A stretch of 15,307 bases of DNA from a virus (IMGVR_UViG_2617270953_000003:1-15307); one strand, 5' to 3'. Positions 6,160 to 8,862 are shown, counted from the first letter of the stretch. Numbers and translations: made by a program. The notes: generated from the letters alone by a model not told the origin.

Positions 6160-6543
6160 TCATCTCGCCGTCAGTTGTTTTGATTTCCGGTATCCTGCTG
6201 CGTAAAGAGCTACATTTGGAAGACATACACCAGTTTCTGGTTGCTTATGTCCAAACTCATTCGCGTACACAATGGCCGCTCTCTCCAGATTGCGTCTGTA
6301 TTCTTTCTGTTGCCAGATCACGTCCTGTGCCATGAACTTAATTGGCTTAGCGTCTTCTATGCGCTCAGGCGTTTCGTGAGTACCTTTAGCCTGAATCTGC
6401 GCTCTGCTTAGAGTAGGGCGGTGTAATACTTCTGAACTTATTGCTTCTTCGCGGGCCAGTACGCCGTTAGCTAATGCCTTTGCCTTTAAACGCTCACGAC
6501 GACGAGAACGTGAATTGCCTTTGAACTGAGTTCTGCGTGTCAT
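6160..6543 (-). CDS. N: N-type transcription antiterminator, P22 gene-24-like (127 aa)
   Basis: AGGAGG RBS 6 nt upstream of ATG at 6541-6543; N-terminal arginine-rich motif RRTQFKGNSRSRRRERLKAK; C-terminus ...VALYAAGYRKSKQLTAR resembles P22 N; first gene after pL and nutL. Confidence 0.7.
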   Translation of the reverse strand: MTRRTQFKGNSRSRRRERLKAKALANGVLAREEAISSEVLHRPTLSRAQIQAKGTHETPERIEDAKPIKFMAQDVIWQQKEYRRNLERAAIVYANEFGHKQPETGVCLPNVALYAAGYRKSKQLTAR

Positions 6544-6671
6544 ATAGACCTCCTGGTGAACTTTGGCGGTGAATACAGCCGGGCGACTAACTCCGGTAGC
6601 GTAATCATTGCAAAGCGCCTCCGCCGAGAAGGTTAGCTTCTGCATTCACCCCAAAGTTCACTTTGGTTATT

Positions 6672-6686
6672 GCGCTTTGTCAGCGC
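6672..6686 (-). promoter_or_regulatory. nutL boxB hairpin, P22 type (GCGCUGACAAAGCGC on the transcript)
   Basis: Plus strand gcgctttgtcagcgc is the reverse complement of GCGCTGACAAAGCGC: 5-bp stem with GACAA loop, between pL and N. Confidence 0.7.
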
Positions 6687-6754
6687 CGTAGATTCATATT
6701 TGAATCGTTGTATATTCACCGCCCTGGTGAGTAGTGCGTCCTGCTGATGTGTTT

Positions 6755-6817
6755 AGTATCACCGCCAGTGGTATTTATGTCAACACCGCTAGAGATAATT
6801 CATCACCGCAGATGGTT
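6755..6817 (-). promoter_or_regulatory. OL1-OL2-OL3 operators and pL promoter (lambda immunity type)
   Basis: 17-mers tatcaccgccagtggta (6757-6773), caacaccgctagagata (6781-6797), catcaccgcagatggtt (6801-6817); on the minus strand -35 TTGACA (6778-6783) and -10 GATACT (6755-6760). Confidence 0.85.
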
Positions 6818-6902
6818 ATCTGTATGTTTTTTATATGAATTTATTTTTTGCAGGGGTGCATTGTTTGGTAGGTGAGAGATCTGAACTGCTATGTTTAGTG
6901 AG

Positions 6903-6932
6903 TTGTATCTATTTATTTTCAAATAGATACAA
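6903..6932. repeat. perfect 12-bp inverted repeat with 6-bp spacer (ttgtatctattt-attttc-aaatagatacaa)
   Basis: Arms 6903-6914 and 6921-6932 are exact reverse complements; AT-rich; lies between the tImm-like terminator and OL3. Confidence 0.6.
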
Positions 6933-6970
6933 TTGGTTATGTGTTCTTGGGTGAGGGGGATCGTGAGGCA

Positions 6971-6995
6971 AAGAAAACCCGGCTCTGTGGCCGGG
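6971..6995 (-). terminator. tImm-like intrinsic terminator ending the cI operon
   Basis: Stem cccggc/gccggg (6978-6983, 6990-6995), 6-nt loop, TTTTCTT tail on the minus strand; begins about 10 nt after the stop at 7004. Confidence 0.6.
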
Positions 6996-7003
6996 AATAA
7001 CAT

Positions 7004-7382
7004 TTAGGAATCAAGGTCAGGTAGCATGATTTTCTCAATCAACGTCAATGCCCTTTGGTCTCGTTCAGCAAAATATTTAGGAGCGTACTGAGGCAGCCAC
7101 ACTTCGTTGAAGTATTGTTTGAAATCTGCAATATTCGTTTGGGTATAGACGTACCGGGAATGTCCGGCCATCTGGGTACTCATGGTTATATGTTGGGAAT
7201 GTCTTCGGCTCACCCCCCCGGTTGTCACGGAGCCATTGCGAGAAAACCCTACCCTCTGAAATATCAGGGACCATTTTTTCTGGCAGCGTATATCCGGCCT
7301 GTTCAAGTGGCGCAACCAAGTTAAACGTCAGTTCATTAAGCATAGAAAAGTGCGTATGAGGAACTCTGCCTCGGTTTGTCAT
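7004..7382 (-). CDS. rex-slot ORF split across two frames: frame A 7077-7382 (101 aa) and frame B 7004-7327 (+1 offset); possible frameshifted gene
   Basis: Two overlapping minus-strand ORFs offset by +1 share a C7 tract (7213-7219; G7 on the coding strand) and an A6/T6 tract (7275-7280). Frame B ends 10 nt before the terminator; frame A has a poor RBS. Confidence 0.35.
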
Positions 7383-7421
7383 ATACCGCTTAAGGTGGAT
7401 AGGGAGTTCGGCAGGCGCTCT

Positions 7422-7763
7422 TTAACCTGACATCCACTCACGCACCCATCTCGATACTTGCACTGCAAATTTTGGAGATAGCCACTGAGCTAAATTAATT
7501 GCGATGTCTGGATGAACCCAAGTCCCTTGATTCTCTGCTCTTCCGCCTTTAAATGATTGAATTAACTCCGATATGGGAATCCCCATATCGCGTGATAATT
7601 CATCAAAAAAATCTTGTGTTGTTTTTAGTCGTGTATAGTCAGCAAGTAGCTTCCCCGCAGACTTGCACATCGCGGTGGCATTGATGTATCCGTCTTTGGT
7701 GCGAAGATGGATGACTTCTCCATCAACTTCTCTAGCGATTAATGCAAGTTGAAATTGTGTCAT
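7422..7763 (-). CDS. KilA-N domain protein (113 aa), directly downstream of cI
   Basis: Motifs DGYINATAMCK...GTWVHPDIAINLAQWLSPKFAVQVSRWV are typical of the KilA-N (APSES-like) DNA-binding domain; AGGA RBS; starts 31 nt after the cI stop. Confidence 0.75.
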   Translation of the reverse strand: MTQFQLALIAREVDGEVIHLRTKDGYINATAMCKSAGKLLADYTRLKTTQDFFDELSRDMGIPISELIQSFKGGRAENQGTWVHPDIAINLAQWLSPKFAVQVSRWVREWMSG

Positions 7764-7794
7764 AAATCATCCTATTACGTGAAAAATAAAACAA

Positions 7795-8508
7795 TCACCC
7801 AAACGTCTCTTCTGGCCACTGGCTGGCGATAACTTTCCCCACAACGGAACAACTCTCATTGCATGGGATCATTGGATATTGCGGGTTTAGTGGTTGTAGA
7901 AACACCTGACCGCTATCCCTGATTAGTTTCTTGAAGGTAAACTCATCACCTCCAAGTCTGGCTATGCAGAAATCACCTGGCTCAACAGCCTGCTCAGGGT
8001 CAACCAGAATTAACATTCCGTCAGGAAAGCTTGGCTTGTAGCCTGTTGGTGCGGTCATGGAATTACCTTCAACCTCAAGCCAGAATGCAGAATTACTGGC
8101 TTTTTTGGTTGTGCTTACCCATTTCTCCGCATCGCCTTTGGTAAAGGTTCTAAGCTCAGGCGAGAACATCCCGGCTTGAACATGAGAAAAAACAGGGTAC
8201 TCATACTCACTTCTAAGTGACGGCTGCATACTAACCGCTTCATACATCTCGTAGATTTCTCTGGCGATTGAAGGGCTAAATTCTTCAACGCTAACGTTGA
8301 GAATTTTTGCAAGCAATGCGGCGTTATAAGCATTTAATGCATTGATGCCATTAAATAAAGCACCAACACCTGACTGCCCCATCCCCATCTTGTCTGCGAC
8401 AGATTCCTGGGATAAGCCAAGCTCATTTTTCTTTTTTTCATAAATAGCTTTAAGGCGACGTGCGTCCTCAAGCTGCTCTTGTGTTAACGGTTTCTTTTTT
8501 GCGCTCAT
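7795..8508 (-). CDS. cI: CI repressor, lambda immunity type (237 aa)
   Basis: Protein matches my recall of lambda CI over essentially its whole length, with a few substitutions; start abuts OR3. Confidence 0.95.
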
Positions 8509-8518
8509 GCATTAAATC

Positions 8519-8584
8519 TATCACCGCAAGGGATAAACTTCTAACACCGTGCGTGTTGACTATTTTACCTCTAGCGGTGATAAT
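8519..8584. promoter_or_regulatory. OR3-OR2-OR1 operators with divergent pRM (minus) and pR (plus) promoters
   Basis: OR3 tatcaccgcaagggata (8519-8535), OR2 taacaccgtgcgtgttg (8542-8558), OR1 tacctctagcggtgata (8566-8582); pR -35 TTGACT (8556-8561) and -10 GATAAT (8579-8584) with 17-bp spacing. Confidence 0.9.
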
Positions 8585-8608
8585 GGTTGCCTGTACTAAG
8601 GAGGTTGT

Positions 8609-8809
8609 ATGGAACAACGCATAACCCTGAAAGATTATGCAATACGCTTTGGGCAAACCAAGACGGCTAAAGATCTCGGCGTATATCAAAGCGCGATTAA
8701 CAAGGCCATTCATGCAGGCCGAAAGATTTTTTTAACTATAAACGCTGATGGAAGCGTTTATGCGGAAGAAATAAAGCCCTTCCCAAGTAACAAAAAAACA
8801 ACTGCATAA
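8609..8809 (+). CDS. cro: Cro repressor, lambda type (66 aa)
   Basis: Sequence matches my recall of lambda Cro apart from about two conservative substitutions; AAGGAGG RBS. Confidence 0.95.
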
Positions 8810-8816
8810 GTAACAC

Positions 8817-8862
8817 CGCTCTTTTCACAATGGACATTCGTCCTACGTCGCTGACAAAGCGA
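8817..8862 (+). promoter_or_regulatory. nutR: boxA-like CGCTCTTTT (8817-8825) and P22-type boxB tcgct-gacaa-agcga (8848-8862)
   Basis: Same GACAA-loop, 5-bp-stem hairpin as nutL; located between cro and the cII-like gene. Confidence 0.65.

Follow-up and report, generated by a model that had tools for sequence, protein, structure and literature searches.

The region between positions 6160 and 8862 of the analysed DNA (the whole stretch of 15,307 nucleotides is referred to as the window) is, with a probability of roughly 0.93, the early control region of a lambdoid E. coli prophage that is composed of interchangeable modules: a lambda switch, an N antiterminator of the H-19B/HK97 type and a variable slot. 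A sequence-only reading of the same DNA had described a lambda immunity cassette joined to a non-lambda N/nut module, and this mosaic was confirmed at the junctions given below. The mosaicism of the region is real but ordinary among lambdoid phages, and the arrangement is already known: lambda immunity together with this N and with boxB hairpins carrying GACAA loops was found in HK97, mEp234, HK106 and PhiR5_2, and lambda immunity with this N type was first sequenced in 2000 (HK97; Juhala et al. 2000; AF069529). The sequence-only reading had called the N/nut module P22-type, whereas its correct name is H-19B/HK97-type N.

The components of the switch were located as follows, with operator mismatches counted against lambda's annotated 17-mers and promoter hexamers taken from a promoter scan:

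6755-6760 and 6778-6783, minus strand: -10 and -35 hexamers of pL (TTGACA-17-GATACT)
6757-6773, minus strand: OL1, 0 mismatches
6781-6797, minus strand: OL2, 1 mismatch
6801-6817, minus strand: OL3, 1 mismatch
7795-8508, minus strand: cI repressor gene
8519-8535, plus strand: OR3, 0 mismatches
8542-8558, plus strand: OR2, 0 mismatches
8566-8582, plus strand: OR1, 1 mismatch
8556-8561 and 8579-8584, plus strand: -35 and -10 hexamers of pR (TTGACT-17-GATAAT)
8609-8809, plus strand: cro, with its stop codon at 8807-8809

The cI product, which matched HTH_3 and Peptidase_S24, was identical to lambda CI at 232 of 237 residues, the changes being T3A, K71N, R129K, D139N and S157Y (lambda residue, position, window residue), and the cro product was identical to lambda Cro at 64 of 66 residues (Pfam Cro, E 8e-34). 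The order and spacing of the six operators were those of lambda, and the pL and pR hexamers lay at the expected places. The earlier description of cI, cro and all six operators as lambda-like was therefore upheld, with at most one mismatch per operator. CI and Cro probably have the DNA-binding specificity of lambda, which would place the prophage in the lambda immunity group, and they would act on OL1-3 and OR1-3 to control pL, pR and pRM.

The N gene and the nut sites flank this switch:

6160-6543, minus strand: N gene of the H-19B/HK97 type, 127 aa, with its ATG at 6541-6543 preceded by AGGAGG
6556-6661, minus strand: long stem-loop that separates nutL from the ribosome-binding site of N, within the N leader
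6672-6686, minus strand: nutL boxB, GCGCU-GACAA-AGCGC (GCGCUGACAAAGCGC)
6691-6706, minus strand: nutL spacer hairpin, GAUUCA-AAUA-UGAAUC, upstream of boxB
8817-8825, plus strand: nutR boxA (CGCTCTTTT), annotated at the same place in EF120460
8832-8843, plus strand: nutR spacer hairpin, GGAC-AUUC-GUCC, identical in H-19B and HK97
8848-8862, plus strand: nutR boxB, UCGCU-GACAA-AGCGA (UCGCUGACAAAGCGA), identical in H-19B, HK97 and mEp234

The N protein was identical to H-19B N at 125 of 127 residues (98.4%) and to the N proteins of HK97 and PhiR5_2 at 126 of 127 (99.2%). It matched Pfam PF25694 (N_peptide) with an E-value of 1e-15 and 58.5 bits (cut-off 27.9) over profile positions 6-100 of 100; P22 gp24 matched the same family with 152 bits, whereas lambda N falls in PF11438 (N36), of which no match was found in the window's protein. 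By the rule of thumb of Casjens' group, in which at least 92% amino acid identity denotes the same specificity (PMC2629481), the protein goes with H-19B and HK97 and not with P22. NCBIfam held no model matching this protein, lambda N, P22 gp24 or the BstA-like protein described below, and a PDB sequence search with N (phmmer) returned a chance match alone (E 1.5), the N-peptide entries being too short or too diverged. A 161-aa ORF starting at 6645 was rejected as the real N: every relative has its N annotated with 127 aa, the upstream portion of the ORF falls within the leader stem and is not the same in HK97, and it is the ATG at 6541-6543 that has the Shine-Dalgarno sequence. In a near-identical prophage of E. 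coli 1008S19, PGAP called just a 23-codon fragment of N.

The arginine-rich motif (ARM; 12-RSRRRER-18) and residues R3, S11 and L108 were all present, as in H-19B N. In that protein R3H, S11F, R15C/P and R18P are loss-of-function mutations, R3, S11 and the ARM residues are needed for nut binding, and antitermination with NusA and NusG takes place both in vivo and in vitro (PMC3526286), while L108F is a suppressor in the C-terminal domain (PMC4499122). N-dependent read-through of terminators has been shown for H-19B N with nutR (PMC3526286, PMC4499122), which has two hairpins and NusA and Rho footprints on its spacer (PMC3526286). We infer the function of the window's N and nut sites from their near-identity to this experimentally tested pair.

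Both boxB hairpins and both spacer hairpins formed in the minimum free energy folds, and the two boxB hairpins with GACAA loops reported earlier were found at exactly those coordinates. The nut sites differed from those of H-19B by just one base in the spacer of nutL, whose hairpin is conserved in H-19B and HK97 apart from a single base, and by one base in the nutR boxA (CGCTCTTTT versus CGCTATTTT in H-19B), so that the dependence on host factors might not be the one published for H-19B. There was no canonical boxA in nutL. The leader sequence between nutL and N was likewise of the H-19B type (97% over 6160-6715), and different from that of HK97 and mEp234. On the minus strand, 6538-6740 folded at -72.5 kcal/mol (z -4.4), and none of 200 shuffled sequences folded as well; by position only, the stem-loop may have a role with RNase III like that of lambda's processed leader stem. 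Rfam at gathering thresholds and ARAGORN found nothing in the window, there being apparently no nut/boxB family in Rfam that reaches threshold.

The likeness to P22 was partial. P22 (NC_002371; structure 1A4T) also has a GACAA pentaloop boxB, its nutL boxB is identical to the window's at 15 of 15 positions, and gp24 is a family-level relative of the window's N through PF25694; to this extent the P22-type label held, but the module is not that of P22. The two proteins share an F-x-G-N...RR-x-ER N-terminus and an LP-x-VALYAAG-x-RKSKQ-x-TAR C-terminus, the last 29-30 aa being 70% identical (E 1e-10), so that the P22-like C-terminus of the sequence-only reading was correct, as was its P22-like arginine-rich motif as far as the N-terminal pattern goes; the ARM core, RRRER, is lambda's. 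In the central 70 aa there is no relationship to gp24, and the 40 identical residues (127 aa against the 100 aa of gp24, about 31%) were concentrated at both ends. A direct transfer of N and nut from a P22-like Salmonella phage, which would make the region a true lambda x P22 hybrid with the specificity of gp24, could draw on these shared features and on the ea genes, abc2 and nin region of the window, which are 78-98% similar to P22 in DNA. Nevertheless it is very improbable, being contradicted at the DNA level: neither 6127-6715 nor the surroundings of nutR matched P22 with blastn, H-19B and Stx phages share the module at 97% DNA identity, and the 92% threshold of amino acid identity is exceeded with H-19B and HK97 and far from reached with gp24. 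The nut architecture is that of H-19B and HK97; P22 has a different nutR boxB, different spacers and a different boxA, and its nutL, unlike the window's, has a canonical boxA but lacks the spacer hairpin. P22 was therefore discarded as the source of the module, which is of the H-19B/HK97 type.

Some functional overlap with gp24 could nevertheless be imagined. In the P22 peptide a His and an Arg are reported to contact the looped-out C (PMC12550061), and in our own alignment these correspond to Arg16 and Lys20 of the window's N. No paper testing interchangeability with gp24 was found in the literature searched. The exactly shared nutL boxB and the conservative changes (His to Arg, Arg to Lys) make cross-reactivity between the two proteins a tentative possibility, on the doubtful side, and the same holds for the suggestion that the lambda-like canonical nutR boxA (CGCTCTTTT, against CGCTATTTT) might restore a dependence on NusB/NusE that is reportedly relaxed in H-19B.

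Compared with lambda, the N/nut module has the same position and logic, and shares the flanking immunity region and ral gene. The ARM core is identical in the two N proteins, and the centre of the window's N resembles the NusA-binding stretch of lambda N (ANGVLA...HRPTLS versus ANPLLV...NRPILS) more than gp24, whereas the lambda boxB loops are GAAGA and GAAAA. Trp18 of lambda N, known from the lambda N-boxB complex, is without an equivalent in the window's N, the aligned position being Asn26.

Similarity to lambda (blastn) covered 6716-6995 and 7794-8823 and was absent from 6127-6715 and from 8824 on. The claims that it ends after the cro stop codon and to the left of OL, that cI and cro are lambda-like and that the N/nut region is not lambda-derived were thus all in agreement with the alignments to lambda and P22. 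From these limits, lambda similarity ends on one side some 40 nt leftward of OL1, no more than 30 nt into the pL transcript, and on the other 14 nt past the cro stop codon, inside boxA. A five-way alignment of lambda, P22, HK97, H-19B and the window placed the junctions as follows:

6733-6747, minus strand: left junction, 15 nt of the pL transcript (UCAGCAGGACGCACU), common to lambda and H-19B-type phages
8802-8825, plus strand: right junction, from the last 8 nt of cro through the nutR boxA

To the right of 6733-6747 the window agreed with lambda and HK97 and differed from H-19B, whereas to the left it agreed with H-19B and HK97 and differed from lambda; the first 12 nt of the pL transcript were invariant in all five sequences. 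At the right junction, similarity to H-19B started at 8802 and similarity to lambda ended at 8823. Both junctions thus coincide with short sequences conserved in lambda, P22, HK97 and H-19B. Nothing beyond the abruptness of these junctions would favour an assembly chimera, or a chance occurrence of the two hairpins, and the probability of either is negligible. The same junctions occur in the isolated and sequenced phages HK97, mEp234, HK106 and PhiR5_2, and among 5,426 complete E. coli genomes the left junction was present in 111 and the right junction in 118 (about 2%). The boxB core CGCTGACAAAGCG occurred exactly twice in the window, each time at a canonical nut position, against 0.03 expected, and none of 200 shuffles contained two matches. 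Both suggestions were accordingly rejected.

The third module lies between cI and OL:

6978-6995, minus strand: Timm-like intrinsic terminator closing the cI operon, with a 6-bp all-GC stem followed by a T run
7004-7763, minus strand: KilA-N/BstA-like pseudogene in the rexAB position, aligned to the intact 253-aa gene of PhiR5_2

The terminator, the equivalent of which is annotated in EF120460, forms the left edge of the replaced rexAB slot, and lambda similarity stops at 6995, at lambda's rexB stop. The intact PhiR5_2 orthologue matched Pfam KilA-N (8e-27) and the C-terminal part of BstA in PADLOC (2.5e-20). In the window the frame is not intact, as a nonsense change at 7424 (GAA to TAA) creates a stop at codon 114 (7422-7424) and 2 bp are deleted between 7131 and 7132. 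bstA has been found immediately downstream of the prophage repressor (bioRxiv 10.1101/2020.07.13.199331), and the gene here has the same position next to cI. It would appear that a decayed BstA-like defence gene has replaced rexAB in a variable 'moron' slot between cI and OL.

The pseudogene implies that the prophage itself may be decaying, and the whole region could be a non-functional remnant of a defective prophage, in which the module identities hold and both switch and antitermination are dead. This is rather unlikely, even though the nonsense mutation and frameshift of the BstA-like gene would fit it, as would the nearest chromosomal relative and best local match, the prophage of E. coli 1008S19 (99.9% identity over 6000-9300, 3 differences in 3.3 kb), in which IS1 directly follows cII and replication genes are missing. 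In the window, O-like and DnaB-like replication genes follow cII, all operators, promoters and nut hairpins are intact, and the genes N, cI, cro and cII have their full length, with 97-99% identity to their counterparts in viable phages; moreover, a phage can lose an accessory defence gene and grow unimpaired. The cII gene lies just beyond nutR:

8947-9243, plus strand: cII of the HK97/H-19B type, not lambda's (Pfam Phage_CII, E 2e-33)

Its DNA showed 97% identity with HK97 (through 9454) and 93% with H-19B, and could not be aligned with lambda cII.

No database record covering at least 80% of the whole 15.3-kb window was found, and PhiR5_2 (PV340546) was the sole phage record to cover 97% of 6160-8862, with 97.5% identity. 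It has N, the lambda-type cI and cro and, as occupant of the rex slot, the KilA-N/BstA-like gene in common with the window; in PhiR5_2, however, that gene is intact, the left arm has exo/bet/gam and the replication genes are O/DnaC, where the window has Erf/SSB and O-like/DnaB-like genes. HK97 (AF069529, NC_002167) has the same lambda-like cI, OR and cro, the same cII and identical nutL and nutR boxBs, with DNA identities of 97.3% over 7799-9454 and about 88% over 6099-6993, but its rex slot holds gp48 and gp49, and the sequence between nutL and N is different. mEp234 and HK106 (EF120460, EF120461) combine lambda immunity, with the same cI and operators as the window, and this N, and differ by hicAB and one ORF in the rex slot and by an HK97-type N leader; their GenBank records of 2007 annotate a nutL boxB (GCGCTGACAAAGCGC), nutR boxA (CGCTCTTTT) and nutR boxB (TCGCTGACAAAGCGA) equal to those of the window. 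Going by its title, as cited in bioRxiv 10.1101/2020.07.13.199331, Degnan et al. 2007 (Mol Microbiol 64:232) gathered both, which are wild phages, as lambda-immunity phages. The experimentally characterised version of the N/nut module is that of the Stx phage H-19B (AF034975), in which nutL and leader are 97% identical to the window in DNA over 556 bp and the nutR spacer hairpin and boxB are identical, and which has its own non-lambda cI, cro and operators. The H-19B N/nut system is said to have been treated by Neely and Friedman in 1998 and 2000.

After derepression, the pL and pR transcripts would carry nutL and nutR, respectively, and the module would be expected to work as in H-19B. The arginine-rich N-terminus of the 127-aa N would bind the boxB hairpins, its centre would recruit NusA to the spacer and its C-terminus would bind RNA polymerase; transcription would then pass tL and tR1 and continue into the genes for recombination and replication.

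For annotation, N should be entered as H-19B/HK97-type and the BstA-like gene marked as a pseudogene, while for the nut sites the annotation of EF120460 can be transferred on the basis of identity. Beyond this the region is of little importance, being a textbook case of lambdoid modular mosaicism. If the possible cross-reactivity with gp24 were real, lambda-immune E. coli prophages of this kind and P22-like phages could trans-activate each other's early operons, and mutual interference, as with Nun, would likewise be possible despite the identity of about 31%. The slot between cI and OL carries exchangeable defence genes, namely rexAB, hicAB and the BstA-like gene, and immunity specificity and the antitermination specificity of N/nut are independent of each other and have been shuffled by recombination at short conserved lambdoid linker sequences.

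The interval 6160-8862 is centrally placed in an early region of typical lambdoid layout, in which N, ral, a gp45-like ORF, cIII, kil, erf, ssb, abc2 and ea-type genes are read leftward (minus strand), and cro, cII, an O-like initiator, a DnaB-like helicase, ninB, a methyltransferase, an antirepressor, an HNH gene and rusA rightward. By blastn against the lambda reference, three blocks of similarity were found, while none was detected in 6127-6715 (N, leader and nutL), in 6996-7793 (the slot between cI and OL where lambda carries rexAB) or to the right of 8823. The features are as follows:

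5669-6126, lambda block, ral region, 98% identity
6160-6543 (-), N, 127 aa, AGGAGG-ATG start
6672-6686 (-), nutL boxB
6691-6706 (-), small hairpin in the nutL boxA-boxB spacer, GAUUCA-AAUA-UGAAUC
6716-6995, lambda block, pL/OL to the Timm terminator, 92% identity
6757, 6781 and 6801, operators OL1, OL2 and OL3
7004-7763 (-), BstA-like pseudogene replacing rexAB downstream of cI
7794-8823, lambda block, cI through cro plus 14 nt, 96% identity
7795-8508 (-), cI, 232/237 identical to lambda CI
8519, 8542 and 8566, operators OR3, OR2 and OR1
8609-8809 (+), cro, 64/66 identical to lambda Cro
8817-8825 (+), nutR boxA CGCTCTTTT, lambda-like, as in HK97 and mEp234
8832-8843 (+), small hairpin in the nutR boxA-boxB spacer, GGAC-AUUC-GUCC
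8848-8862 (+), nutR boxB

The six operator 17-mers, searched for as given in the lambda reference annotation, each had 0-1 mismatch, were ordered and spaced as in lambda, and were likewise overlapped by pL and pR consensus promoters. The sequence-only reading had described lambda-like cI, cro and operators combined with a P22-type N and nut sites, with lambda similarity ending just past the cro stop codon and to the left of OL. Its account of the cassette and of both limits (8823 and 6716) was borne out, comparison with lambda placed the N/nut region outside the lambda blocks, and its mosaic interpretation, a lambda-type immunity cassette joined to a non-lambda N/nut module, was right in kind.

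Aligning the window with lambda, HK97, the Stx phage H-19B and P22 narrowed the left junction to 6733-6747. The 12 nt at the pL transcript start, UCAGCAGGACGC, are invariant in all five; upstream of them in the transcript the window follows the pattern of lambda and HK97, and downstream that of H-19B and HK97. The right junction (8802-8825) reaches from the final 8 nt of cro to the end of boxA, with H-19B-type similarity beginning at 8802 and lambda similarity persisting to 8823. Both junctions therefore coincide with brief stretches that lambdoid phages have in common, the places at which modules are expected to be exchanged by homologous recombination. Since the recombination junction passes through boxA, boxA is inherited together with the immunity module, and boxB together with the N module; the nutR boxA of H-19B is CGCTATTTT, as against CGCTCTTTT here.

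A scan of the 15.3 kb for a 5-bp stem with a GACAA loop returned exactly two sites, the boxB hairpins already proposed from the sequence; they share the 13-mer CGCTGACAAAGCG (2 occurrences against 0.03 expected by chance), and both are present in minimum-free-energy folds. They lie where nut sites are expected, the first some 60 nt from the start of the pL transcript and the second 39 nt past the cro stop codon, and the nutL boxB is identical to that of P22 (15/15). With the spacer hairpins, the nut sites fit the description of H-19B nutR as having 'two hairpins', whereas those of lambda and P22 lack the second, spacer hairpin. No canonical boxA (CGCTCTT) was found in nutL (6687-6740, minus strand), another trait of H-19B that is not seen in lambda or P22; CGCACTACT at 6729-6737 is labelled putative nutL boxA in the GenBank record of mEp234, and the near-identical CGCACTGAC at this position in lambda is not boxA.

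N itself is 126/127 identical to that of HK97 and PhiR5_2 and 125/127 to that of H-19B, and over the 556 bp that hold N, its leader and nutL the DNA identity is 97% to H-19B, BP-4795, PhiR12 phages and many Stx phages (933W-type phages match 87% of the length), with no blastn match to P22. The P22-like C-terminus claimed for N was recovered, the BLASTP match to P22 gp24 being limited to the last 29-30 aa (70% identity, E 1e-10); 40 residues were identical in a global alignment. At the arginine-rich N-terminus, F-x-G-N-(A/S)-(K/R)-(T/S)-R-R-x-E-R is common to N and gp24, but the core RRRER is that of lambda N, whose stretch ANPLLV...NRPILS resembles residues 26-46. N belongs to Pfam PF25694, a family matched by gp24 along its entire length, rather than to PF11438 of lambda. 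'P22-like' is thus fair for the boxB loop and for N at family level, but the module is a distinct H-19B/HK97 type and should be so named. In the near-identical chromosomal prophage of E. coli 1008S19 (NZ_CP147050), RefSeq/PGAP annotates N as a 69-nt fragment (6661-6729, window 6160-6228; 'antitermination protein, partial, missing N-terminus', pseudogene) covering the last 23 codons, although the full 127-aa ORF can be read there; given that no NCBIfam model matches N, the short call is probably an artefact or gap of annotation.

Between nutL and the N Shine-Dalgarno, the leader (6556-6661, minus strand) forms a long stem (outer helix about 24 bp, z -4.4) that lies where lambda has its RNase III site, a position that may point to a role for RNase III. 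The leader is of the H-19B type, while those of HK97 and mEp234 are different and longer; the N module is therefore mosaic within itself.

Purified H-19B N antiterminates with NusA and NusG on H-19B nutR templates, the three protect the spacer and boxB, mutations R3H, S11F, R15C/P and R18P in or adjoining the arginine-rich motif (12-RSRRRER-18) abolish antitermination, and resistance to Rho far away from nut requires the C-terminal domain, roughly residues 101-127 (PMC3526286). Mutants of the RNA polymerase exit channel are suppressed by L108F in that domain (PMC4499122). The window's N has every residue that is altered in these N mutants. The P22 peptide-boxB structure shows a looped-out C in GACAA that touches one His and one Arg of the peptide (PMC12550061); in our alignment the two positions correspond to Arg16 and Lys20 of the window's N, which would be compatible with P22-like recognition.

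Two lesions break the gene in the rexAB slot: at 7424 GAA has become TAA, and 2 bp have been lost between 7131 and 7132. The same allele is found in 1008S19. Its intact form in PhiR5_2 (253 aa) carries a KilA-N and a BstA C-terminal domain, and it is therefore a BstA-like abortive-infection gene, in the characteristic place of bstA, downstream of the prophage repressor (bioRxiv 10.1101/2020.07.13.199331). Elsewhere, ORFs for a Mom-like DNA modification protein (1637-2131, minus strand, left arm; phrog_1384, E 4e-44) and a DNA methyltransferase (12194-12781, plus strand, nin region; phrog_111, E 4e-88) are possible anti-restriction accessory genes.

No phage record or complete E. coli genome covered at least 80% of the whole window (1-15307; best 55-59%), and its combination of left arm, immunity and replication modules is absent from the phage and E. 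coli collections searched, as is usual for lambdoid mosaics. The observation in 6160-8862 is real, accurately described and confirmed in every particular, and the arrangement is not new. HK97 and the wild lambda-immunity phages mEp234 and HK106 have the same combination, the 2007 GenBank records of the latter two annotating the same boxA and boxB sequences; PhiR5_2 matches 97% of the interval at 97.5% identity, rex-slot gene included; and 1008S19, the best local match, differs by three bases in 3.3 kb. When 5,426 complete E. coli genomes were searched for each junction, with coverage of at least 80% of its length required, 111 had the left one (boxB to OL2) and 118 the right one (cro end to boxB). 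Lambda immunity with an H-19B/HK97-type N is thus a published, deposited and common combination, and the interval from cI to N has been described as a hotspot of mosaic diversity (bioRxiv 10.1101/2020.07.13.199331).
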